DNA of 60,260 bases, the filler included. It is 5 parts of 5 records of this genome, joined end to end, with 100 filler letters (N's around TTAATTAATTAA, not from the genome) between each part and the next. Parts side by side here need not be neighbours in the genome. Positions count along the whole stretch, not along the records: positions 18,330 to 45,199 come from DRR723986_14353; 4 more parts are not named here. One strand, written 5' to 3'. Below, one piece after another: positions 26,066 to 54,142 of the stretch; within the stretch, counting starts at the first letter, position 1; each line of letters begins with the position of its first letter. A program made the position numbers and the translations under genes. The notes below the pieces were generated by a model, which did not search any database, had not been told where the DNA came from, and saw nothing but the letters and a program-made list of their open reading frames with translations.

Positions 26066-27116
26066 ACTGACGCCGGACTGGTTCAACCAGCTTTTCGAAG
26101 AAATTGGCATCGATGCGGAGGTTTCCAGCCTTACCGCGAAGTCGATCGGCACGGGCCAGATCGGCGAGAATGTCCGCTTTGTCTTCGACTATGCCCGCAA
26201 GGGCGACGGCGCGCCCGCGACGCTGGTCGGCAAGTTCCCATCGGACAATGAAGCCAGCCTGATGACGGCCAAGATGCTCGGCCACTATGAGCGCGAGGTG
26301 AACTTCTACCGCACCTTCCCGAAGGTGGCGGGGCGGATCACGCCAACGGCGCTCTATACCGATTATAACGCAGACACGAACCGGTTTGCCCTGATCATGG
26401 AAGACATGGCCCCGGCCGAGCAGGGCAACCAGCTGACAGGCTGCAGCGTGGCCGAAGCCGAACGCGCCATGGATGCCGCGGCGATCCTGCACGCGGCGCA
26501 CTGGAACGACGCCTCCCTCGATACGCACCCCTGGCTTCAGGGCAGCGCAGTGGCACCGGAGCCGGCCCTGACCATGGACGCGACAGTCGCGCTCTGGACC
26601 GGGTTCAAGGACCGCTACGGTCCCCAGCTCGCACAGGAAGACATCGACGTTGGCGACGCTTACACCGCTGCCTTGCCCAAGATGCAGGAAATCGAGCGGC
26701 CGGGTCCATTTGCGCTGACGCACAATGACTACCGTCTCGACAATATGCTGTTCGGCAAGCCGGGTTCACCGAAGCCGCTGGCAGTCGTCGATTGGCAGAC
26801 GGCCGGAAAAGGCGCGCCCGCCAGCGATGTGGCCTATTTCATCGGGGCAGGTCTGACGCGGGATGACAGGCCGAAGCACGAGCAGGCCTTGTTGCGGTAC
26901 TATCATGCCCGGCTTCAGGATGAGGGGGTCACGGATTACGGTTTCGATGCGCTCTATGACGACTATCGGTACACCTGCTTCTACGGCATGTCGGTGGCTT
27001 ATGGTGCGGCGATGCTGGTCAAGCAGACAGAGCGCGGCGACCAGATGTTCCTGACGATGCTGCGGCGCCACGCGGCGCAGGCGCGGGACAATAATGCTCT
27101 CGAATTGCTGCCCTGA
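26031..27116 (+). CDS. APH/EcKinase-like phosphotransferase
   Basis: REVNFY, HNDYRLDNMLF, VDWQ and DVAYF; SD GGAGG before ATG 26031. Confidence 0.85.
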   Translation: MSRPGLDTNPLELTPDWFNQLFEEIGIDAEVSSLTAKSIGTGQIGENVRFVFDYARKGDGAPATLVGKFPSDNEASLMTAKMLGHYEREVNFYRTFPKVAGRITPTALYTDYNADTNRFALIMEDMAPAEQGNQLTGCSVAEAERAMDAAAILHAAHWNDASLDTHPWLQGSAVAPEPALTMDATVALWTGFKDRYGPQLAQEDIDVGDAYTAALPKMQEIERPGPFALTHNDYRLDNMLFGKPGSPKPLAVVDWQTAGKGAPASDVAYFIGAGLTRDDRPKHEQALLRYYHARLQDEGVTDYGFDALYDDYRYTCFYGMSVAYGAAMLVKQTERGDQMFLTMLRRHAAQARDNNALELLP

Positions 27117-27322
27117 AGCCGCAGATTTTTCTCAATCGTGTAATGTTTCCTGCAGAGTCTCGCCCGGTGTGCCGGGCCGGAACAGGTTTCCAAACATCCT
27201 CCTAATGACCGCGCGTAAACTCTCATAACGGGTTACGCGTGGGCTTAAGGGGAAGTGCGTAGTGTCCATATTCCGGGCTCTCCAGAAGGAGTGTCCGCCC
27301 TCTATTGGAAAATGGTGTGGAT

Positions 27323-27595
27323 ATGGAACAGCAGAATGCAAAACCGATGAGCGTGAAAGGCCCGGATGGCCAGAAGCTCACCATGGCGGATCTCCCGTCG
27401 CCGAATATTTCCCGTTGGGTTACCCGTCGCAAGGCTGAAGTGGTTGCCGCCGTTGCCGGTGGTTTGATCAGCCGTAAGGCGGCTTGCGACCGCTACAATC
27501 TGACGGATGAAGAGTTCGAAGGCTGGGAGCGTCTTTACCTGCGTCACGGCGCCAAAGGCCTGCGCACCACCCGTCTGCAACAGTATCGTCGCTAG
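27323..27595 (+). CDS. sciP: CtrA inhibitor SciP (DUF1153)
   Basis: GPDG..LT.ADLP, RWVTRRKAEVVAAV.GGL and GLRTTRLQQYR. Confidence 0.93.
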   Translation: MEQQNAKPMSVKGPDGQKLTMADLPSPNISRWVTRRKAEVVAAVAGGLISRKAACDRYNLTDEEFEGWERLYLRHGAKGLRTTRLQQYRR

Positions 27596-27602
27596 GCCGC
27601 TG

Positions 27603-27618
27603 TTAAACCCAAATTTAC
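27603..27618 (+). promoter_or_regulatory. CtrA box upstream of the mini-fliF operon
   Basis: TTAA-ACCCAAA-TTTAC, one mismatch from TTAA-N7-TTAAC. There is an extra GTTAAC at 27628-27633 and GANTC sites at 27651 and 27669. Confidence 0.7.
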
Positions 27619-27677
27619 GGGCGCCCCGTTAACTCTGGCGAAAGCATCCGGAATCCTCCGGGTAGCGGGAGTCCAGT

Positions 27678-28340
27678 ATGGCGCACCTAGCAACCGGTAT
27701 CTCGCGCGGCGCGACGCCTTCCACACGGGCGCTCGCGTTCGCGGCATGTGCCGTGGCGCTGGGCCTGCTCGCATGGCGCGGCAGCGATATTGTCAGCCGT
27801 GCGCCAGCATCACCCGGTCCGCTTTCCCAGTCTGAAGCCTCTCTCCTGTCCGTCGCCGAGGCGATGGCGGGGCAGGGGCATGTCCGCATTTCTATCGTCC
27901 GCCATCCGGGCGCAATCCGGCAGGTCCTGTTGCTGCTCGACGACAAGGCCAGCGTGGATGACGGGATGCTCACCAACACAATTTCCATGGCAGCCGGGCT
28001 CGATGCGGCCAAAGGCGAGCGGGTGGATCTGCAGCGCGTTGCCTTTGCGCCCGGTGTAACGGGTGCGCCGCTGCCGCGTGACTGGGCCGAATTGTCCTTG
28101 CTGGCCTTGCTGGCTGGCCTCTTGGGCTGGATCGGATTGAAATCGGATCGAAGAGAAGAGACGCCTGTCGAACTGGTACAGGAAACACTTCCCGCCCGCA
28201 TGACGTCGCAGCCTGCTGAACCCGCCATCCGCCCTGCACCCTCGCACGATGACGATGCTGCTGATCTTGCCCGCCGGGATCCTGGCCGCGCCGCAGATGT
28301 CGTTCGCGCCTGGATGAGCGGCAATGGAGGCAATGCATGA
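27678..28340 (+). CDS. fliF: Highly reduced FliF (MS-ring)-like protein, 220 aa
   Basis: TM1; RBM3-like segments (EAMAGQGHVRISI and AAGLDAAKGERVDL...F); TM2; FliG-binding tail (RDPGRAADVVRAWM). It is directly upstream of fliG. Confidence 0.7.
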   Translation: MAHLATGISRGATPSTRALAFAACAVALGLLAWRGSDIVSRAPASPGPLSQSEASLLSVAEAMAGQGHVRISIVRHPGAIRQVLLLLDDKASVDDGMLTNTISMAAGLDAAKGERVDLQRVAFAPGVTGAPLPRDWAELSLLALLAGLLGWIGLKSDRREETPVELVQETLPARMTSQPAEPAIRPAPSHDDDAADLARRDPGRAADVVRAWMSGNGGNA

Positions 28341-29269
28341 GTGCGCTGACGATCGCCCACAAAGAGACAGCGGCAGATGGCCTGATGCGATCTGCACGCC
28401 TGATGCGGGCACTGGGTCCGGATGCGGCGCCGATCTGGGCGGAACTCTCGAAATCCGAAGTGCAGGCCCTCACCGCTGCCATGGATGCGCTCGGCCCATC
28501 AGCGGAAGGCGAATCCGAAGCAGTCTCGCAGTTCATGGCAGCACACCGGCGGCTGCGCGCTCCGGCCAATGCAGGCGCATCTGTCTGGCGCCGGCTATCG
28601 GACGCGGGCACCGAGACGCTGGCGGGTCTGTTTGCTGGCGAGCATCCGCAGACGGTCGCCCTGATCCTGTCGCGGCTGGAAGGGGAGGCATCTGCCCGCC
28701 TGTTGCGCGCATTGCCGCCAAAGCTTGCCATCGATGCGATGCAGCGCCTGCTGAACCTGGGGCCGGTCCATCCGGCGGCGCTTGCGGCTCTTGAGACCCG
28801 GCTCGACGCCGTCCTTGCGGCGAACGCCGGAAGTGGGCAGGCGACCGGTCACGAGCGCGTTGCCCGCATCTTCGACCGGCTCGACAGCCGGTCCGAAAAG
28901 ACATTCCTCGCCGCGCTCGATCATGCCGAACCGGGGGCAGGCGAGAAGGTGCGCGCGCTGATGTTCACTTTCGACGACCTGGCCAGCCTTGATGCGGCCG
29001 GCCTGCAGACACTCTTGTCGGCTGCAGATCGCGCGGCGCTCGTGGTGGCGCTGAAGGGGGCCCGTCCGGATACGGCCTCGGTCTTCTACGCGAACATGAC
29101 CCAGCGCGCGGGTGATCTGTTACGTGAGGAAATCGCAACGCTCGGCCCGGTCCGCCGCAGCGAGATTGAAGGCGCCCGTCAGGAACTAGTCGCGCTGGCC
29201 CGCACACTGATGCAGCGCGGCGATATTCGTGCCGATGGCACGGTGGAAGACGATGAGCTGGTCGACTGA
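28337..29269 (+). CDS. fliG: Flagellar motor switch protein FliG
   Basis: EHPQTVALILS, LMFTFDDL and torque helix NMTQRAGDLLREE..LGPVR. Confidence 0.92.
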   Translation: MSALTIAHKETAADGLMRSARLMRALGPDAAPIWAELSKSEVQALTAAMDALGPSAEGESEAVSQFMAAHRRLRAPANAGASVWRRLSDAGTETLAGLFAGEHPQTVALILSRLEGEASARLLRALPPKLAIDAMQRLLNLGPVHPAALAALETRLDAVLAANAGSGQATGHERVARIFDRLDSRSEKTFLAALDHAEPGAGEKVRALMFTFDDLASLDAAGLQTLLSAADRAALVVALKGARPDTASVFYANMTQRAGDLLREEIATLGPVRRSEIEGARQELVALARTLMQRGDIRADGTVEDDELVD

Positions 29270-29688
29270 TGCAGCGCGCCGTCAAATCCCTGCAGCCATT
29301 CGATTTCCGCAGCGATTTTACCCTGCAGCCGGAACCGGAACAGCCGGTCTTTCCGGTCGAGGAAAAGATCACACTGTCTGCACCGGACCTGGCCATGCTT
29401 CTGACTGAAGCGCGCGCCGAGGCCCATGCCGCTGCCATGTCTATGAGGCATGAAGAACAGAATGTGCGCCTACAGCAGCTGACAGAAAACCTGAAAGAGG
29501 CGCTCGCGAATCTGGTAACGCTGGCGGGGCATCTGGAAACCAGCGCCTATTCGGACGGTTTCCGGCAGTCCGCCCTGCGCCTCGTTACGGCAACGGCCCA
29601 GCGGATCGTCGACGGACAGGGCGATCTGTTTGCACAAAGCCGGGAATTCAGCCAGAATAACTGCCCGACCGAGAAGGATGGACCATGA
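29269..29688 (+). CDS. Short FliH/FlbE-like protein
   Basis: Lies between fliG and fliN; N-terminal PFDFRSDF resembles the FliH/FlbE N-terminus, followed by an alanine-rich helix EARAEA. Confidence 0.55.
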   Translation: MQRAVKSLQPFDFRSDFTLQPEPEQPVFPVEEKITLSAPDLAMLLTEARAEAHAAAMSMRHEEQNVRLQQLTENLKEALANLVTLAGHLETSAYSDGFRQSALRLVTATAQRIVDGQGDLFAQSREFSQNNCPTEKDGP

Positions 29689-29951
29689 CCCAGCCCGCCA
29701 ATCCTGCCTTGCAGAAGTCCCTGATGGACGTGCCCGTGCGTGTGGACGTGGTGCTGGGCGAAGTGCGCATGCCGATGGAAGAACTGGTGGCCATGTCGGC
29801 AGATGATGTCGTGGCGCTGGAGCGGCGGACGGACGAACCGGTCGAGATTTATGTCTCCGACCGGCTGATGGCCCGCGGGCGCCTCGTTGTTGCAGATGGG
29901 CAACTCGGGGTCACGCTTTCGGAGATCGTGGACTCCCGCGAAGCCGCTTAA
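29685..29951 (+). CDS. fliN: FliN (SpoA domain)
   Basis: DVPVRVDVVLG, EPVEIYV..RLMARG and LGVTLSEI. Confidence 0.88.
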   Translation: MTQPANPALQKSLMDVPVRVDVVLGEVRMPMEELVAMSADDVVALERRTDEPVEIYVSDRLMARGRLVVADGQLGVTLSEIVDSREAA

Positions 29952-29965
29952 CTGCGGGAAAACCC

Positions 29966-30093
29966 ATGGTTAACAATGCGTTGCGGGCCAGTGCATCCTG
30001 CACTGCAGGGATGGGCTGTCTGCGCCTCCCGAATTCGGCAATTCCTAACACCGAAGAGGAATTTGTTAACCTTTAGACGACACTAATGGTTAC
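29966..30093. promoter_or_regulatory. CtrA half-sites upstream of flhF
   Basis: ATGGTTAA (TTAACCAT on the minus strand) at 29966-29973, GTTAACCTT at 30065-30073 and ATGGTTAC at 30086-30093. Confidence 0.5.
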
Positions 30094-30164
30094 GGGAGAG
30101 TGTGGCCCGTTCGCGTCTGGGGCGCGGGGATGGCGGGTCTGTTCGAGAGTAAGGACGCCGCCGT

Positions 30165-31172
30165 ATGCGTATGAAAATGTTCGCCGCCGAGACCTTCGAG
30201 GCTGCCAAGGCGATGATTTTTGCCGAGATGGGAGCCGATGCGGTCATCCTGTCCGAGCGCGAAATCGATGGCGGTGTGGAAGTCAGGGCGGCGGTCGACA
30301 AGATGGGCGGCGTCGGCATGGTTCCAAATGAGCCGCTGTTCCTGCGCGATGCGCGCGGAGGCGGCCACGGCCGGGGGTCCGAAAACCCACTGTTCAGCCG
30401 CGTGCGCGATGCGCTGCTCTGGCACGGTTCCCCTCAGCGCTTCGCAGATCGTGTGGCTGCGGAAGGCGCAGGCCGCGTCCAGCTGAAAGACCCGGAAGAG
30501 GCGATTGCCGAGGGTCTTGCCCGTATTGTGACATGCGATCCGCTGCCGGCGCGTCTCGACCGCGATATTCTTCTGGTCGGTCCCCCAGGACACGGCCGCA
30601 CGGCAACTGCCGCAAAGCTGACCCGCCGCGCCGCCATGGCGCGGGCGGAAGTCGCACCCGTTGCCGCCGATCTCGACGGAACCGCAGGCGGGGATCAGCT
30701 GGCCGCCTACCTGGAACGGGAAAAGGGCCAGATCCGCACCTGCCAATCGCCGGACGAGCTGTTCGGTACGCTCAAGCAGCTGAAATCCGAGAACCGCCGC
30801 TGCGTGATCGACCTGCCGGCGATCAATCCCTTCGATGACGATGACATGGCCAGCTTGCAGGACCTGATCTCGGTCATCCGTGCCGAGCCTGTTCTTGTCA
30901 TGTCAGCCGAAGGCCACCCGGATGACCAGCTCGAAGCCGCGCGCGGTTTCGCGCGAGCCGGAATCAAGCGGGCCATCGTCACTAAACTTGATGTTGTCCG
31001 AAGGAGGGGCGGGGCAATCTCTGCCTTGTCGTCGGCCGGCATTGCCTTCTCCCATCTTGCGGTCACCCCGTTCATCGGTGGCGGACTGGTCCCGGCAGCG
31101 CCCATGCGTCTTGCCGCCCTGTTGATGGAAGACGCCCCGGGCGACGTGATCGCCCTGAAAGGAGCCGCGTAA
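30165..31172 (+). CDS. flhF: FlhF-like SRP-type GTPase with degenerate motifs
   Basis: FlhF N-terminus MRMKMF.A....A...I..EMG.DAVILS; G1 GPPGHGRT...AKL; G4 TKLD; upstream of a MinD-like gene. Confidence 0.78.
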   Translation: MRMKMFAAETFEAAKAMIFAEMGADAVILSEREIDGGVEVRAAVDKMGGVGMVPNEPLFLRDARGGGHGRGSENPLFSRVRDALLWHGSPQRFADRVAAEGAGRVQLKDPEEAIAEGLARIVTCDPLPARLDRDILLVGPPGHGRTATAAKLTRRAAMARAEVAPVAADLDGTAGGDQLAAYLEREKGQIRTCQSPDELFGTLKQLKSENRRCVIDLPAINPFDDDDMASLQDLISVIRAEPVLVMSAEGHPDDQLEAARGFARAGIKRAIVTKLDVVRRRGGAISALSSAGIAFSHLAVTPFIGGGLVPAAPMRLAALLMEDAPGDVIALKGAA

Positions 31173-31176
31173 TCCC

Positions 31177-32019
31177 ATGAGTTTCATGATGCGCAAATCG
31201 CAGGAACGTCCGGCACCGCGGCCCACGCCGCGGCGGGTCGAGCCTGCTTCGATCATCGCGGTTGCGAGCGGGAAGGGCGGCGTCGGCAAGACGTTCATGG
31301 CCATCACGCTGGCATCGGCCTTCGCCCAAGCGGGTAAACGTACCTTGCTGGTGGATGGGGACCTTGGCCTGGCCAATGTCGACGTCCAGCTTGGCATAGC
31401 ACCTGAAACAGACCTCGCGGCGGTAATCGCCGGCTGGGTGGAGCTTGATGATGCGGTTACGCCGGTTGATGGCGGCGCCGCCGACGGCGGGTTCGATGTG
31501 TTGCCGGGCCGGTCAGGCTCTGGCGCACTGGCCGAACTGCCCCCGGAAGAAGTGGCCCGCCTGGCGGCCGGCCTCTCCGCGCTGGCCTTGCAATATGACC
31601 AGGTTGTGGTCGATCTCGGTGCCGGGATCGAAGCCAACTGCATGCGGCTTGCCCGCGCGGCCGACAAGGCGCTGATGGTGATCACGGACGAACCGACATC
31701 GATGACTGACGCCTACGCCTTCATCAAGGTGCTGCGCGGCTATGCACCGAATGTCGAGCCGGTGGTCTGCATCAACCAGGCCGACAGCCGTGCTGCCGGA
31801 CAACGGACTTATGAGGCTATTGCCCGGGCCTGCCAGACATTCCTCGGCTTCCGCCCGCATCTTGCTGGTGTGGTGATCCGCGACCCGAAGGTCCGCGATG
31901 CAATCCGTTGCCAGAAGACACTGATTTCCACAGATCCTCAGGCTCAACCCATCCAGGACGCCATCGCCATCAGCCAGATGCTGATCGGTGACGCCCCGGC
32001 AGCGGAGCTTGGCAATTAA
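31177..32019 (+). CDS. flhG: FlhG/FleN MinD-like ATPase
   Basis: SGKGGVGKT, DGDLGLANVD, VDLGAGI and EPTSMTDAYAFIK. Confidence 0.88.
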   Translation: MSFMMRKSQERPAPRPTPRRVEPASIIAVASGKGGVGKTFMAITLASAFAQAGKRTLLVDGDLGLANVDVQLGIAPETDLAAVIAGWVELDDAVTPVDGGAADGGFDVLPGRSGSGALAELPPEEVARLAAGLSALALQYDQVVVDLGAGIEANCMRLARAADKALMVITDEPTSMTDAYAFIKVLRGYAPNVEPVVCINQADSRAAGQRTYEAIARACQTFLGFRPHLAGVVIRDPKVRDAIRCQKTLISTDPQAQPIQDAIAISQMLIGDAPAAELGN

Positions 32020-32049
32020 TCTGTGTGAAGATTTGGGGGATTTCGCGGG

Positions 32050-32141
32050 GAATCGCAGGGCTCTGTTAACTAGTGTTAAAGAAACAGCCTATAGGATTCT
32101 CAGAGTTAATAAAAACGACTAGCTTGTCGTTAGGCTGATTC
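32050..32141 (+). promoter_or_regulatory. ctrA promoter region with an atypical CtrA site and CcrM (GANTC) sites
   Basis: TTAA-N6-TTAA at 32066-32079, TTAA at 32106, and GANTC at 32050, 32095 and 32137. Confidence 0.6.
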
Positions 32142-32153
32142 GGGAGACGACAC

Positions 32154-32867
32154 ATGCGCGTCCTGCTAATTGAAGACGATAGCGCCGTCGCGCGTTCCAT
32201 AGAGCTGATGCTGAAGTCTGCTGGCTTCAACATCTACACCACCGACCTCGGTGAAGAAGGTGTCGATCTTGGCAAGGTCTACGAGTACGACATGATCATC
32301 CTCGATCTGTCTCTGCCCGACATCTCCGGCTATGAAGTCCTCAAGCAGCTGCGCATGGGCCGCGTGAACACGCCGGTCATGATCCTCTCCGGCAACCCGG
32401 ATATCGAAGCGAAAGTCCGTACGCTGGGCTATGGCGCTGACGACTACCTCACCAAGCCGTTCAACAAGGACGAGCTGATCGCCCGCATCACCGCCATTGT
32501 GCGCCGCTCCAAAGGCCATGCCGAGAGCGTGATCCGCACGGGCGAGATCCTGGTGAACCTCGACGCCAAGACGGTGGAAGTGGACGGCGATCGCGTGCAC
32601 CTCACCGGCAAGGAATACCAGATGTTCGAGCTGCTTTCCCTCCGGAAGGGCACGACGCTGACCAAGGAAATGTTCCTCAACCACCTCTATGGCGGTATGG
32701 ATGAGCCGGAGCTGAAGATCATCGACGTCTTCATCTGTAAGCTCCGCAAGAAGCTGCAGCAGGCCACCGGCGGCAACCACTATATCGAAACGGTTTGGGG
32801 CCGCGGCTACGTCCTTCGCGACCCGCGCCCGAGTTCGAAGACGAGCGAGGTCGAAGAGGCCGCGTAA
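32154..32867 (+). CDS. ctrA: Cell-cycle master regulator CtrA
   Basis: [52 protein letters not shown] and a C-terminal AA (ClpXP-type degron). Confidence 0.97.
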
Positions 32868-32887
32868 AGCTGCCCTCAAGCGACAGA

Positions 32888-32924
32888 AATTCCGCCCCGG
32901 CCTTTGTGCCGGGGCGTTTTCGTT
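32888..32924 (+). terminator. Probable terminator after ctrA
   Basis: CGCCCCGGC-CTTTGT-GCCGGGGCG followed by TTTTCGTT. Confidence 0.7.
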
Positions 32925-32986
32925 GGGGTCCTTGGTTTCGTGCGCTCCGGGCTTGCAACACGTGGCAAATGCCTGACACTGGGCGC

Positions 32987-33595
32987 ATGTCACAGCGTTC
33001 TGCCGGCCCAGAGATTCTTCGCCTGATCGAGCTGATGTCCCGCCTGCCGGGCTTCGGGCCGCGTTCGGCACGCCGGGCGGCGCTGTTCCTGCTGAAGCGG
33101 CGTGATACGCTACTGCTTCCGCTGGCGGAGGCGATGTCCGATGCCGGGCATCGGATCGAAAAGTGCGAGGTCTGCGGCAATTATGATACGCTGCAGCCCT
33201 GCGCGGTATGCCAGTCGGGCGGGCGGGACGAAGGCCTGATCTGCGTTGTGGAAGATGTGCCGGACCTCTGGGCGCTGGAGCGGGGCGGGTCTTACAAGGG
33301 GCGTTACCATGTCCTTGGCGGGGTCATGTCCGCTGTGGATGGTGTCACGCCTGATGACCTGAATATTCCTTCGCTCATTTCGCGCGTGGACGCCGGCGGT
33401 GTGCGCGAGGTCATTCTCGCCCTCAACGCGACGTTTGAGGGGCAGAACACGGCGCACTATGTGGCGGATCAGCTGGCCGGGAAGGGCGTGCAGGTCACCT
33501 ATCTCGCCCACGGCGTGCCGGTGGGCGGAGAGCTGGATCACCTGGATGATGGCACGCTCGCCGCCGCGCTGCGGGCCCGGCGGACGAGCGAATAA
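32987..33595 (+). CDS. recR: Recombination mediator RecR
   Basis: [12 protein letters not shown]4 zinc finger, ICVVED, YHVLGG and [14 protein letters not shown]. Confidence 0.96.
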
Positions 33596-49476: not shown

Positions 49477-50091
49477 TTATTCAAGTTCAAATGCAATGCC
49501 TGCCATGAAACCGTAAATATTCGGCAATGCCTCACTCGAAAGTGGGAAGTCGCCCTGTAAGAGCACATATCCACGTAGCTCGGGGGCAAGCGGGAACGTA
49601 ATACCGCCAAAAGCGCCAAAAATGAAATCGGCTATCGGCTGGTCGTCAAAAGTGTCGTTGTCAATATCCGGTCCACCAAAGATGAATCCGCCGGATACAC
49701 CAAACAGGGGCGTGAATCCCTCGGTATTAAAACGATATTCCACCAGGCCCTGCATCAGAAGTACCGCGCTCTCATCCTCAGAAGGAAGTGCAAATGGTGG
49801 GTTTTCCAGTCCTGAATAATCATATTCATACTCAAGCCTTGTGTAGCCAATGCGCGCACCGGCATTAACGTGCTTGCCATACTCAATCTCGTAGCCCGCC
49901 TGAGCCAGAAACTTCCCGTTTACGTTAACGCCCACATCCTCAATGCCAAAGATGCGCTGATCCCCAAGTCCGGATGGAATGACCGGGCCAACCTGGATGA
50001 AGACAATGGACTCCTGGGCCTGCACCTGCGCAGTGCCGAGTGCCAAAAATGTCAAAAGTGATAGTAGAAGAGCCGATCGTTGGAATTTCAT
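49477..50091 (-). CDS. Small outer-membrane beta-barrel protein
   Basis: Signal peptide, alternating amphipathic beta-strands and C-terminal GIAFELE. Confidence 0.7.
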   Translation of the reverse strand: MKFQRSALLLSLLTFLALGTAQVQAQESIVFIQVGPVIPSGLGDQRIFGIEDVGVNVNGKFLAQAGYEIEYGKHVNAGARIGYTRLEYEYDYSGLENPPFALPSEDESAVLLMQGLVEYRFNTEGFTPLFGVSGGFIFGGPDIDNDTFDDQPIADFIFGAFGGITFPLAPELRGYVLLQGDFPLSSEALPNIYGFMAGIAFELE

Positions 50092-50194
50092 GTCAAATGC
50101 TCCTGAAATGAGAACAGTCCAAAAGTGATTGAATCAGAATAAGCAGCTGCAGTGCTGCCCGCCGGGGAGGAGGGAATGTAATGGGATAAGAAGC

Positions 50195-50677
50195 TTACGT
50201 GCGATTGTGGTCGCAATGTGCTGGATCATTGCACGCCGCATAAATGTTAAAAGCGTGTTTGACCGGCTTAAAGCCAAACTTGCTGCAAATGTTCTTTTCG
50301 ATCTCCGAAAGGCGCTCGTTTTCCTGGAACTCAATAATGTGGCCACACTCCGTACAGATCAAATGATCGTGGTTCGGCATCTTGTCGGCCAACTCATAAT
50401 GCGCACCCTCACCGTCAAAACGATGTTTGACCAGCAGGTCGCACTTGGTTAACAGGTCCAGGGTCGAATAGACCGTAGCACGTGAGACTTTGGCGCTGTT
50501 TGTATGTATGTGCAAATACAACTCATCCGCGCTAAAATGTTTGTTGATGTTTACTACCGCCTCAAGCACCAAATAGCGCTCCTGTGTGTTGCGGTAGTTT
50601 TTGCGGCGCAGGAACTTTGTGAATCGCTCGCGCAGATCATCTAAATCGACCTGCTTTTCGGCTGCATCTTCTTTCAT
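50195..50677 (-). CDS. fur: Fur-family regulator
   Basis: HFSADELY, VSRATVYSTL, HDHLICTECG and a C-terminal Cys pair. Confidence 0.9.
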   Translation of the reverse strand: MKEDAAEKQVDLDDLRERFTKFLRRKNYRNTQERYLVLEAVVNINKHFSADELYLHIHTNSAKVSRATVYSTLDLLTKCDLLVKHRFDGEGAHYELADKMPNHDHLICTECGHIIEFQENERLSEIEKNICSKFGFKPVKHAFNIYAACNDPAHCDHNRT

Positions 50678-50912
50678 AATCAACACGATCTTTAGGCGTG
50701 AACAGGGCAACCCCAGGGGGCCTCTACACAGCACTCGTCATAAATCCAGCGAATCCAGAGCGGAAAGTGAACTACATGGCGGGCGCAAAAGAACATTGAA
50801 TATACGCATCTTCGCCCGAACTTTCGTATTTTTGGGGTTCTCTGCATGCTGCGCGGGACGGAAAATTGCATGTCCGCGCCAGACCGAAATCATCTCATAA
50901 AAGGTAGGAAAT

Positions 50913-51461
<549 letters not shown>

Positions 51462-51496
51462 GGCTGAATAGTCTTGGTGCTACGCCGTACGATTTT

Positions 51497-51530
51497 AACA
51501 GGGGCGTCGCTGTCAGTGGCGCCCCTGTTT
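51497..51530 (+). terminator. Terminator after ahpC
   Basis: AACAGGGGCG...CGCCCCTGTTT. Confidence 0.7.
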
Positions 51531-51677
51531 ACTTCAGCATGTATTTTGCTGCTCATCTGTTTCCGGTCTGCTTGGTCTGTTTGACTCAGACATGTTGTAT
51601 TTCCGGCTTGGCTACGCGCTCCTCACGTGCAGGGTTTGTCGCGGCAAGTCACAGGGATTTTAATGGTGGATTAATCT

Positions 51678-53579
51678 ATGCGTGCCTGGTCTAGCGAAGA
51701 TGCAGTTGAACTGTACAATATCAATCACTGGGGCATCAACTACTTTGGTGTGAACGCCGCCGGTAATGTAACGGTGAAGCCACGCAAAGACAATGGTCCG
51801 GCCATCGACCTGCGCGAACTGCTGGCCGACCTTGTGGCGCGTGATATTCCCCTGCCTGTCCTGCTGCGTTTTGTTGATATCATCGGTGACCGCATCGCCA
51901 AAATTTGCGGTTGTTTTGAGCAGGCCGCCAAAGAGTACGAATACGAAGGTCGCTATTTTTCTGTTTATCCCATCAAGGTAAACCAGCAGCGCCACGTAGT
52001 TGAAGAAATTGTGCGTTATGGCAATCAGTTTAACATTGGGCTGGAAGCCGGCTCGCGTCCCGAACTGCAGGCCGTGCTTTCGATCATGGAAAACCCGGAA
52101 GCGCTGATTGTTTGTAATGGTTATAAGGATGCCGAATTTGTTGAGCTGGCCCTCCTCGCTCAAAAAATGGGCAAGCGCATATTCCTCGTTGTTGAAAAGT
52201 TAAACGAATTGCGCCTGATAGCACGCATCGCCAAACAAGTAAATGTTGATCCCAATATTGGTATTCGCATTAAGTTAACAAATTCAGGTGCCGGCAAGTG
52301 GGAAGAGTCCGGTGGTGATCAAAGTAAGTTTGGCTTAAACTCTGTTGAGCTGCTCGAAGCCATTGAATATGCGCGCGCCGAAGGTTTACTGGCCAGCGTA
52401 CGCATGATTCACTTTCACCTGGGAAGCCAGATTACCAACATCCGCAAGATCAAGGAAGGTCTCAAAGAAATTGCGCAGTACTATGTGCAGATGCGCGACA
52501 TGGATTGTGACGTGCAGTTTGTGGATATTGGCGGTGGACTGGGCGTCGACTACGATGGTTCGCGTTCGATAGGCCCAAGTAGTATTAACTACAGCATTCA
52601 GGAATATGCCAATGATACAGTCTACGCGTTGGCGGATGCTTGCAAAAAGAATGAACTTAAACACCCGAATATTATCAGCGAGTCCGGCCGTGCCTTAACA
52701 GCACACCACTCGGTGTTGGTGTTTAACGTTTTGGGCGCCACTACTTTGCCACAGTGGGATGACGAAAAGTTTACCGTAGAGGAAGAGGATCACGATATTG
52801 TTAAGGACCTGTACGGGATTCTGCAGGAGCTGAACGAGCGCCGTTTTCTGGAGCATTGGCATGATGCACAGGAGTTAAAAGAAGAGATTGTTAAACTTTT
52901 TGGATTGGGGCTGCTCGACTTGCGTGGCCGCGCTAAAGCTGAGCGTTTGTATTGGAGCATCGCACGCGAAATTCAGCGCTATTCCAAGCGCATGAAACAT
53001 ATGTCGCCTGAGCTGCAGTCGCTCTCACGCATTCTGGTTGACAAATATTTCTGCAATTTTTCACTGTTTCAGTCACTGCCGGACGCCTGGGCGATTGACC
53101 AGCTGTTCCCGCTTGTGCCGCTGCACCGACTTAACGAAGAGCCTACGCGTGTTGCTACCTTGCAGGACATCACCTGTGACTCGGATGGTAAAATTGACAA
53201 ATTTGTCACTACGCAGAACGACATGTCATTTCTGCCCGTGCATGCCTTAAGCGAGGACGAACCTTATTACATCGGCGCATTTTTGGTGGGCGCGTACCAG
53301 GAAATCCTGGGCGACTTACATAATTTGTTTGGTGATACAAGTGCGGTGCACGTTACGGTTAACTCCGATGACTCGTTTCAGATCGATCAGATAATTGAGG
53401 GCGAAACGGTGGCGGACGTGCTGGAGTACGTTCAGTTTGACCCTAAGACACTTGTACGCAAAATTGAAAAGTGGGTTAACGCAGCGGTTAAAGAAGGCAA
53501 AATTGCTACGCCGCAGGCCCGCGAGTTTTTGCAGATGTATCGTTCGGGTCTTTACGATTACACCTATTTGGCGACTTAA
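51678..53579 (+). CDS. speA: Biosynthetic arginine decarboxylase
   Basis: VYPIKVNQ, GLEAGS, HFHLGSQI, DIGGGLGVDYDG, DITCDSDG and GAYQEILGDLHNLFG. Confidence 0.96.
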   Translation: MRAWSSEDAVELYNINHWGINYFGVNAAGNVTVKPRKDNGPAIDLRELLADLVARDIPLPVLLRFVDIIGDRIAKICGCFEQAAKEYEYEGRYFSVYPIKVNQQRHVVEEIVRYGNQFNIGLEAGSRPELQAVLSIMENPEALIVCNGYKDAEFVELALLAQKMGKRIFLVVEKLNELRLIARIAKQVNVDPNIGIRIKLTNSGAGKWEESGGDQSKFGLNSVELLEAIEYARAEGLLASVRMIHFHLGSQITNIRKIKEGLKEIAQYYVQMRDMDCDVQFVDIGGGLGVDYDGSRSIGPSSINYSIQEYANDTVYALADACKKNELKHPNIISESGRALTAHHSVLVFNVLGATTLPQWDDEKFTVEEEDHDIVKDLYGILQELNERRFLEHWHDAQELKEEIVKLFGLGLLDLRGRAKAERLYWSIAREIQRYSKRMKHMSPELQSLSRILVDKYFCNFSLFQSLPDAWAIDQLFPLVPLHRLNEEPTRVATLQDITCDSDGKIDKFVTTQNDMSFLPVHALSEDEPYYIGAFLVGAYQEILGDLHNLFGDTSAVHVTVNSDDSFQIDQIIEGETVADVLEYVQFDPKTLVRKIEKWVNAAVKEGKIATPQAREFLQMYRSGLYDYTYLAT

Positions 53580-53824
53580 TTGTTGCGTTAAGTGCTCGAT
53601 AGCGCTATTGCCTCCCTGCAACTTAACTATCCTGGATTTTGAGCGACTTCACTGACCGCTTTGAGTCCTTTGCTCGCATGCGCTTCACTGCGGTCTCAGG
53701 CTTATTGATCTTTTTGTTTGTTGTTGAGACTCAAGACTGAAGTCTTTGGGATAATCGTTGAGGTGTTAATCTCGGAGGATTAGGGCTTGCAGTGTCAATT
53801 CTTTGAGATAGACTGAGGTGTTTG

Positions 53825-53914
53825 AGTCTTGGGTGATAGTCTTGGGTATTTGTGGATTCGCAGCTGAATCCGTGACTGAATCTGCATCTGAATCGACCGC
53901 TGTGTTCGCAGCTG
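53825..53914. repeat. Short direct repeats in a non-coding stretch
   Basis: AGTCTTGGGT twice (53825, 53838), CTGAATC three times at a 12-nt period (53864, 53876, 53888) and TTCGCAGCTG twice (53857, 53905). Confidence 0.6.
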
Positions 53915-54142
53915 TCTGGCCTTCTCTTGGCTGGAAAAAATTGATCGCAGGCGGCTGTTTTGATTTTGACTGAATTTGGATAACAACTGAGCTGAAATCC
54001 GAACATCGTTTAAACCTGATAAATGCAAGGCAAAGCGTGTGTGTGGTCCTTAATTGAGGCTGTGTGGGCTGTGGATTGGGTTTAAAGCATTTGGATTCAA
54101 AATCTAAAATTTTAACAACCGGGTCGAGCCCTTAGGGCTCGA

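Follow-up and report, generated by a model that had tools for sequence, protein, structure and literature searches.

A reduced descendant of the Caulobacter-type early flagellar operon, kept between sciP and ctrA, with a possible output other than swimming

The 60,260-nt stretch of DNA analyzed here (referred to below as the window, with all coordinates counted along its full length) contains, within its DRR723986_14353 part, a compact set of flagellar-type genes enclosed by sciP and ctrA. Comparison with related genomes lends good support to the notion that this set, termed here the module, derives by reduction from the Caulobacter-type ("a-type") early flagellar operon and has been kept between these two genes. 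The coordinates of the open reading frames (ORFs) together with family matches confirm the gene order that an earlier note on this DNA had given, sciP, mini-fliF, fliG, a short ORF, fliN, flhF, flhG and ctrA, all on the + strand. As argued below, we cautiously favor a function for this reduced operon other than swimming, with a polar ring that would be placed by FlhF and FlhG.

Two genomes of the same taxonomic order, G018 and G103, carry flgE, sciP, fliF (540 aa), fliG (337 aa), an ORF of 214 aa and fliN (118 aa), followed by a gene for a sigma-54 activator (469 aa), flhA (705 aa), flhF and flhG. Three genomes of the same family, G016, G164 and G199, show the same arrangement, and in G164 ctrA lies 4.5 kb beyond flhG. 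Because same-family genomes hold the full sciP–fliF–fliG–x–fliN–flbD–flhA–flhF–flhG operon at the same position, the module is an in-place reduction, which bears out the view of the earlier note that an ancestral flagellar base had been preserved here. The comparison also gives the steps of the reduction: flbD and flhA were deleted; FliF, FliG, the protein in the FlbE position and FliN were shortened; and FliG, FlhF and FlhG were kept. The absence of flbD and flhA, which had likewise been pointed out, is complete as far as tblastn can tell, with no remnant of either at E ≤0.01 in window positions 27001–33000 or in the inserts found in four relatives (see below), and FlhA, FliP and FlgI have no match at the locus. 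In place of flbD–flhA there is a 213-bp gap that contains the CtrA half-site motif TTAACCAT on the − strand (29966–29973). This is its single occurrence in the window, between fliN and flhF; at least one occurrence was found in 49 of 100 shuffles, and its presence is thus not beyond chance.

The gene that follows sciP, ORF220 (27678–28340, 220 aa), has no Pfam or NCBIfam family match, and it was assigned as a mini-FliF by an AlphaFold2 (AF2) model, by structural alignment with VIA-align and by a profile search. The AF2 model, built on 14 orthologues (predicted local distance difference test score, pLDDT, 72 overall and 83–92 in the core), contains a transmembrane (TM) helix at residues 14–40, an alpha-beta-beta-alpha-beta domain at 51–121 and a second TM helix at 133–158, followed by a disordered proline-rich linker and two short C-terminal helices at 192–213; the two-TM layout is seen across the 14 aligned orthologues. 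When the model was compared by VIA-align with 48,161 PDB representative chains, only three gave Z ≥8, and all three are membrane–supramembrane (MS) rings of FliF. The best match, Salmonella 6scn_A, has a Z of 9.4 and a root-mean-square deviation of 2.9 Å over 78 residues, with model residues 47–124 placed on chain residues 240–438, and the others are 8z5v_A (Z 9.3) and Vibrio 8z4d_1 (Z 8.3). Foldseek found nothing for the model in the PDB at E ≤0.001, its FliF rows being weak (E 0.015). A search of 151 same-order genomes with a profile built from the 14 orthologues recovered 28 full-length mini-FliF proteins in ORFs of 215–257 aa as well as weaker matches (E 1e-10 to 1e-3) in the ordinary 500–640-aa FliF ORFs of many genomes, which align with profile positions 43–81 and about 90–228, up to the C-terminal part of FliF. 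Only this profile search connects the two proteins, as tblastn of the full a-type FliF against mini-FliF gave no match at E ≤0.01. Because the structural matches are FliF rings and the profile aligns with the C-terminal part of FliF, mini-FliF is, as modeled, a cut-down FliF that keeps two TM helices, the core of the third ring-building motif (RBM3) and a cytoplasmic tail. As for the C-terminal FliG-binding helices, the profile reaches the C-terminal end of FliF, and helices 192–213 are predicted only. RBM1 and RBM2 are absent: mini-FliF has no PF01514 (YscJ_FliF) match, the full FliF proteins of relatives scoring 150–207 bits, its periplasmic part is only ~90 aa, and it has no room for a collar.

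The next gene (28337–29269) encodes a FliG paralogue of the ancestral a-type lineage, in which FliG_N (48 bits, profile positions 4–55 of 104), FliG_M (63 bits) and FliG_C (114.7 bits) are all matched. Its score against TIGR00207, 155.4 bits, is under the cut-off of 226.7, and FliN and FlhF likewise score under the NCBIfam equivalog cut-offs. Alignment with complete a-type FliG shows that the module protein is short by ~45 aa at the end of the N domain and in the linker. The module FliGs retain M-F-T-F-D-D-L and mostly E-x-P-Q. The stator-facing charges of Escherichia coli FliG are K264, R281, D288, D289 and R297. Equivalents of R281 (T-x-R-A), D289 (the second acidic residue) and R297 (GPVR) are present in 23 of 23 module FliGs and that of K264 in most sequences, while the D288 equivalent, the first acidic residue, is variable.

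Between fliG and fliN lies ORF139 (29269–29688, 139 aa), a stub in the FlbE/FliH position. By hhalign it corresponds to the N-terminal ~85 residues of the 203–217-aa protein whose gene intervenes between fliG and fliN in complete relatives (probability 82%, E 1e-5, columns 8–87). It has an N-terminal F-x-F-x-S-D-F motif, a coiled coil and a G-Q-G-D-L-F tail, the G-D-L-F end of which is also shared with the longer counterpart, and the C-terminal globular half is gone. Neither ORF139 nor the 214-aa a-type counterpart has a Pfam family (ORF139 has no NCBIfam match either), the FliH domain is unmatched, and a profile of the counterpart found no relative in the PDB. Thus, of the earlier proposal that the parts tied to export are the shortened ones, the loss of RBM1 and RBM2 from FliF stands, but the naming of ORF139 as FliH finds no support in Pfam, which recognizes no FliH in it, and ORF139 covers only the N-terminal ~85 residues of its counterpart. 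FliN (29685–29951) is a bare SpoA (FliMN_C) domain of 88 aa, compared with 111–118 aa in complete relatives, with the N-terminal extension gone; it scores 76.9 bits with PF01052 and 81.7 bits with TIGR02480, just under the cut-off of 84.05. By the ORF coordinates, successive genes from ORF220 to fliN share 4 nt at 28337, 1 nt at 29269 and 4 nt at 29685, and the translational coupling that had been noticed at these positions is therefore real.

The flhF–flhG pair is intact in the window; flhA, which precedes it in G016, G164, G199, G018 and G103, is deleted here. FlhF (30165–31172) is an SRP-type GTPase (SRP, signal recognition particle), with matches to SRP54 (50 bits) and TIGR03499 (80 bits, cut-off 174). 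Compared with its nearest complete relatives, FlhF is not shortened, the window protein having the same length as G016 FlhF. The two are 46% identical, and the FlhG proteins of the window and G016 are 68% identical. Canonical FlhF contains a G1 motif GxxGxGKT and a G3 motif DTAG. In the module FlhFs the P-loop reads GPPGHGRT in 15 of 15, so that Lys is replaced by Arg, and G3 has a D-x-P-A pattern (D-L/M-P-A/S) instead of DTAG, while TKLD is kept. The change in G3 is found also in complete a-type relatives, one of which has the P-loop Arg as well. FlhG (31177–32019) is a MinD-like ATPase of the MotR/FleN type with CbiA/ParA/MinD matches, the MinD/ParA ones being under equivalog cut-offs. It is 68–73% identical to FlhG of complete a-type relatives and has the deviant Walker A motif SGKGGVGKT in all aligned sequences; inspection by eye found no DQA-type N-terminal motif.

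A FliG protein scan identified 13 such loci in Hyphomonas, Henriciella and Hyphomonadaceae-like genomes, at 41–69% identity, with other matches at ~34%. All 13 contain sciP, ORF220, fliG and fliN, ORF139 is detectable in 12, and the ORFs are intact in every one. The flhF–flhG–ctrA genes follow directly in 5 of the 13, after an insertion in 4, and lie outside the fetched stretch in 4. In H. neptunium the module is split, with HNE_1390–1394 apart from HNE_0942–0944. Identity to the window proteins across loci is 27–43% for mini-FliF and 41–69% for FliG. Nei–Gojobori ratios of nonsynonymous to synonymous substitution (dN/dS) for the two least saturated pairs are 0.10–0.12 for fliG, 0.10–0.13 for ORF139, 0.01–0.02 for fliN, 0.01 for flhF, 0.01 for flhG and 0.18–0.36 for mini-fliF; dS is above 1.5, that is saturated, in most pairs, and the ratios are rough for this reason. 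Simple decay, which the earlier note had considered as patchy or frameshifted orthologues with dN/dS near 1, is not what is seen: the ORFs are intact and dN/dS is far below 1. Purifying selection has thus maintained the module throughout the Hyphomonas/Henriciella part of the family, which consists of marine bacteria that bud. The inserts in four relatives (L004 7583–10147, L005 7613–10428, L006 7569–8698 and L011 7250–10422) are unrelated, measure 1.1–3.2 kb and carry ORFs of 150–664 aa; all are internal to the module, that of L011 ahead of fliN and the other three between fliN and flhF.

The earlier note had supposed that motility, if any, is encoded elsewhere, and relatives' genomes agree with this. 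In 5 of 5, there are two FliG_C matches, one full-length FliF, one FlhA and four SpoA-domain proteins, with the second FliG, the full FliF and FlhA in a separate, complete cluster. The second FliG of G001 belongs to a complete ~30-kb cluster that contains fliF–x–fliN–fliP–fliG, flgI, flgL, flgK, flgE, motB and motA and continues with rod genes, flagellin, flaF, flbT, fliI, flhA, fliR and flhB. Judged by gene content, swimming, where present, is encoded by a separate, differently organized complete cluster. The H. neptunium counterpart is HNE_0241–0270, several genes of which are in the published CtrA regulon (PMC7200025). At the edge of the G001 cluster (L121 1–8000, G001:C1:1746000–1754000) there are two phage-type integrases, an AbiEi antitoxin-like gene and a nucleotidyltransferase. 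The clean absence of the cluster from G253 suggests that it behaves as a mobile or easily lost block.

A scan of 201 family genomes for FliG_C, with classes tallied by hand from the resulting table, placed 62 genomes in a class with one strong match (≥136 bits) that is complete a-type-like, 95 in a class with two or three matches, of the module type plus a second type, 27 in a class with a single module-type match ("module-only"), 5 among others, and 12 with none. Of the module-only genomes, 25 have no FlhA (FHIPEP), one has a 34-residue fragment of it and one a copy truncated by the contig; none of the 27 has FlgI and one has FliP, and all three markers are absent from 24. Ten module-only loci were fetched, and all contain sciP–mini-fliF–fliG–ORF139–fliN, 5 of them with flhF–flhG–ctrA alongside. 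In an empty-site comparison, 42.6 kb that include the cluster in flagellated G291 correspond to 4.9 kb in G253, on a 2.5-Mb contig, with the flanks of the two genomes collinear and, on the right side, over 25 kb. In the same comparison for G071 the contig ends 9 kb past the right flank and the left-flank query protein is multi-copy. A tree of SciP, FliG and FliN places four species without FlhA (the group around G056, G284, G289 and G304) in one group, drawn open, that includes the FlhA-positive L012, and three (around G170, G213 and G229) in a second, strongly supported group, with three others scattered. Module genes are intact in these groups of four and three species, with dN/dS, at saturated dS, of 0.14–0.17 for fliG (0.42 in a long-branch pair), 0.06–0.09 for fliN, 0.03–0.06 for flhF and 0.02–0.03 for flhG. 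The converse case also exists, as G163 and G217 have the second-type cluster without a module-type FliG. Taken at the level of gene content, there is thus good support for retention of the module where flagellar markers are missing. A side observation from the scan is a FliG match over two overlapping frames at G270:C2:308556–309301, in a genome with an a-type-like FlhA of 862 bits, which may be a frameshifted fliG.

The module has partners that are encoded elsewhere in relatives' genomes. The fourth SpoA protein of these genomes, of 336–363 aa and not present in the window (for example, G001:C1:968866–969951; L111–L115, L179–L184), is FliM-like. Close to the N terminus it carries an invariant L-x-x-x-E-I-E-x-L-L-R-P motif, and its only recognized domain is the C-terminal SpoA domain, FliMN_C. 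The H. neptunium gene for it is probably HNE_0504. It was found in 31 of 32 genomes searched and in 26 of the 27 module-only genomes, one with a TAG. Its sole match in complete a-type genomes is FliM (E 3e-11 to 6e-6), and the one match checked, in G016, is a bona fide FliM (PF02154, 229.7 bits). Exactly one MotA_N match is present in 27 of 27 module-only genomes and exactly one MotB_plug match in 26. Each of the five flagellated relatives has two matches for MotA and two for MotB, of which one lies in the cluster and the other is an orphan. These orphan genes are at separate loci (L169–L174, L201–L207), and the orphan motA has the same neighbors in flagellated G001 and in G289. MotB retains the Asp of "AYADF" and MotA its TM3/TM4 motifs, with dN/dS of 0.11–0.19 in a group without FlhA. 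FlhF orthologues are present in 26 of the 27 module-only genomes, or 28 of 29 with the addition of two more divergent cases, and are 58–78% identical. Because the orphan FliM-like protein and orphan MotA/MotB accompany the module, it is, judged by its gene complement, a putative rotor-plus-stator set and not only a cytoplasmic ring (C-ring).

FlhG binds the EIDAL motif of FliM/FliY, and by this analogy we infer that FlhG may be the partner of the FliM-like motif. Control by chemotaxis (CheY) through this motif was considered and rejected: a CheW domain was found in 0 of 32 family genomes, three with a complete flagellar cluster included, and the motif is therefore unlikely to serve CheY. The CheW-less swimmers seem to be without a canonical chemotaxis pathway.

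Upstream of mini-fliF there is a CtrA-box-like site, TTAA-N7-TTTA (27603–27617, + strand), one mismatch from TTAA-N7-TTAA, and a second such site, TTAA-N7-TAAA (32066–32080, + strand), lies upstream of ctrA. The near-consensus CtrA box of the earlier note is thus present, and 12 of 13 related loci have TTAA-N7-TT[TA]A in the equivalent position, but by itself it is not beyond chance, as the window contains 8 sites with at most one mismatch compared with 4.4 expected. In H. neptunium, the CtrA chromatin immunoprecipitation (ChIP) trace, at 50-bp resolution, has a summit upstream of sciP of 78 reads per million (RPM) and a second at the sciP/HNE_1391 junction of 80 RPM, with input at 5–7 and the signal falling to 25 between them, within sciP (Leicht et al. 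2020, PMC7200025). The flhF homologue and ctrA also have peaks upstream (8.9-fold and 12-fold, respectively), and HNE_1391–1393 have wild-type values of 101, 33 and 95 reads per kilobase per million, which rise 1.5–2.1-fold in a divJ mutant (p 0.10–0.23) (PMC7200025). CtrA control of the module, as first proposed, gains a ChIP summit at the orthologous site, but the authors do not count HNE_1391–1393 among the CtrA targets. The main text of that paper contains no mention of FlhF, FlhG, FliG or fliF, genes that are annotated in H. neptunium (PMC7200025).

Comparison with described systems places the module closest in structure to the Caulobacter-type class II operon (sciP, fliF–fliG–flbE–fliN–flbD–flhA), which is full in G018, G103, G102, G016, G164 and G199. 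The two share the place next to sciP, the gene order and the position of the CtrA box upstream of fliF, and FliG, FliN, FlhF and FlhG of the module are orthologous. In contrast to that operon, the module has no flbD, flhA, RBM1 or RBM2, its FliG is ~45 aa shorter, its FlbE-position protein is halved, its FliN is a bare SpoA domain, and it is kept in genomes without rod, P-ring and export genes. Like the FlhF–FlhG pairs of Vibrio, Shewanella and Pseudomonas, in which an SRP-type GTPase is joined with a MinD-like ATPase, the module has flhG directly downstream of flhF, and in those systems FlhF has been described as guiding FliF to the pole (PMC12826062, PMC11236974). Unlike those pairs, the module FlhF has Arg for the P-loop Lys and no DTAG, no DQA-type FlhG motif is apparent by eye, and the pair is retained in genomes in which no flagellar genes were found. 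Non-flagellated Lysobacter enzymogenes has likewise kept flagellar genes, which it apparently uses, but its gene complement and lineage are other than those here, where export gate, rod and P-ring markers are missing and rotor, stator and FlhF/FlhG are kept (PMC9927559). Two FliF/FliG/FliN/MotAB sets of different lineage are also found in Bradyrhizobium (subpolar/lateral) and in Rhodobacter/Cereibacter (fla1/fla2); there, however, both sets build flagella, whereas here one lacks export and axial parts (PMC6406911, PMC7277832). By analogy, the closest functional precedent is that of Campylobacter jejuni, in which flhF, flhG, fliF, fliM and fliN mutants form minicells (Balaban and Hendrixson 2011, PMC3228812) and single type III secretion system, fliE and rpoN mutants form none (PMC3228812). 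The same protein set thus acts there without need for the secretion system or rod, but its members are parts of a working flagellum and fliG is not required, whereas here they make up a separate, reduced paralogous set with MotAB (PMC3228812). The "hat-like" inner-membrane structure of H. neptunium was considered and set aside, as it is found in 20 flagellated species and is FlhA-dependent (PMC9380563).

These comparisons can be assembled into a model, to which we give slightly better than even credence, in which the reduced a-type operon has an output other than swimming and yields a polar ring placed by FlhF/FlhG. CtrA would turn the operon on late in the cell cycle, and FlhF would bring the complex to a pole. 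Through RBM3, mini-FliF would oligomerize into a small ring in the inner membrane that has neither secretion gate nor rod, its C-terminal helices would hold FliG, and FliG, the FliM-like protein, FliN and the FliH-position stub would form a C-ring-like assembly. FlhG would dock on the L-S-x-A-E-I-E-A-L-L motif of the FliM-like protein, and the conserved charged helix of FliG may still be a contact site for MotAB. Rotation of a filament would not be the output; a polar or bud-pole cue is the better candidate, as in the restraint of polar division in Campylobacter. A stronger form of the model, which we regard as doubtful, is a working machine, in which a polar mini-FliF ring, a C-ring of FliG, FliM-like protein and FliN, MotAB and FlhF/FlhG would turn or transmit ion-motive force without gate, rod or filament, with an output such as pole or bud identity, choice of the division site or envelope remodeling in these stalked budding bacteria.

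Several points weigh against the favored model, and some of them support a different reading of the same genes. Ring assembly, polar location and an effect on division are features that we infer, the genome-wide statements rest on the genomes of relatives and not on that of the window organism, and the dN/dS ratios, as noted, are rough. FlhF may have an altered GTPase cycle, since the P-loop Lys is Arg and DTAG is absent. HNE_1391–1393 are tabled as "CtrA ChIP: No," outside the direct CtrA regulon, and their changes in the divJ mutant have the p values given above (PMC7200025). Further points can be read as signs of an accessory to the second-type flagellum, in which FlhF/FlhG would place and count flagella and the rest would serve as auxiliary rotor, adaptor or second-stator parts; in genomes without flagellar genes, the module would be in decay or the flagellar cluster missed in binning. 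Most of the genomes without markers are metagenome bins, synteny confirms only one absence (G253), and the flagellar genes form one ~35-kb block, beside integrases in G001, of a kind that binning easily loses. On the tree, the species without FlhA do not cluster significantly (89 of 500 shuffles were as good). In G253, which has a verified recent loss of the cluster, the orphan motA has one in-frame stop, as fits the stator of a lost flagellum, and this is the strongest single point for an accessory. Sporadic lesions occur elsewhere: a 1-nt frameshift in mini-fliF of H. oceanitis, behind the second TM helix, a TGA in mini-fliF of G021 and a TAG in the FliM-like gene of G230. Moreover, about 95 of the 201 family genomes have both FliG types, and FlhA is present in 10 of 10 tested module-bearing genomes with two FliG_C matches (G324, outside the scan of 201, has an FlhA fragment at a contig end). 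However, 24 of the 27 module-only genomes are without FlhA, FlgI and FliP, the groups of four and three no-FlhA species have intact module genes with dN well below dS, and MotA/MotB are kept at the ratios given above in the same setting. In addition, the second-type cluster has its own FliF, FliG, FliN, FliM-like SpoA protein, MotA and MotB, and it occurs in G163 and G217 without a module-type FliG. An accessory role is the main rival, kept alive by the motA stop in G253 and by the caveat on bins, although on this evidence we consider it unlikely.

Another reading, which seems quite improbable to us, is that of a signaling checkpoint, with the MS/C-ring-like platform and FlhF/FlhG reporting maturation of the pole to CtrA/SciP much as the Campylobacter rotor signals to FlgSR. 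In 9 of 13 loci the module is indeed flanked by sciP and ctrA, H. neptunium CtrA binds upstream of sciP, the module, flhF and ctrA, and in Campylobacter the MS ring and rotor activate FlgSR (PMC3760246). But H. neptunium and 4 of 13 loci no longer have the linkage with ctrA and still have the genes, the module has no linked sensor kinase, and pure signaling leaves the kept MotA/MotB and stator-facing charges of FliG unexplained. That the module is a functionless, decaying relic is scarcely credible. All retained genes but flhF and flhG are shortened, mini-FliF and FliG are fast-evolving (27–43% and 41–69% identity to the window), and there are the occasional stops or frameshifts; yet the ORFs are intact in 13 of 13 and 10 of 10 loci over a divergence deep enough to saturate synonymous sites, the translational coupling is kept, the genes are expressed in H. 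neptunium, and dN/dS values of 0.01–0.2 for five genes already contradict a relic.

Flagellar motors are usually thought to be inseparable from the export apparatus and axial structure. This lineage has deleted the export gate, the FliF ring domains proximal to the rod and, from the FliH-position protein, the half that binds the ATPase, and it has kept rotor, switch, stator and the FlhF/FlhG pair, even where no flagellar genes were found. If functional, the module would be a natural minimal MS/C-ring that shows which parts are enough for ring assembly and FlhF/FlhG recognition, and would clearly exemplify the reuse of a motor core for the cell biology of budding bacteria. Literature searches, with subscription journals outside their scope, found no description of this module. 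Its H. neptunium form (HNE_1391–1394, HNE_0942–0943) is in a genetically tractable species for which CtrA ChIP-seq, RNA-seq and cryo-tomography data exist.

The borders of the module are clear from their family matches. On the left, sciP, encoding a CtrA inhibitor (27305–27595; NF051866 130 bits, cut-off 100; DUF1153 128 bits), adjoins fliF in complete relatives as well; its ORF starts at 27305, and the ATG used in the earlier note is at 27323. On the right, ctrA (32154–32867) scores 411.7 bits with NF045991 (cut-off 350). The longest ORF after ctrA (32795–33595) has a TTG start inside the ctrA 3′ end, with a 73-nt overlap, and its true start is probably further downstream. Elsewhere in the window, positions 50001–54000 have a G+C content of 0.48–0.51 compared with about 0.60 in the rest, and the sole perfect TTAA-N7-TTAA of the window, at 51660–51674, lies inside this low-G+C segment.

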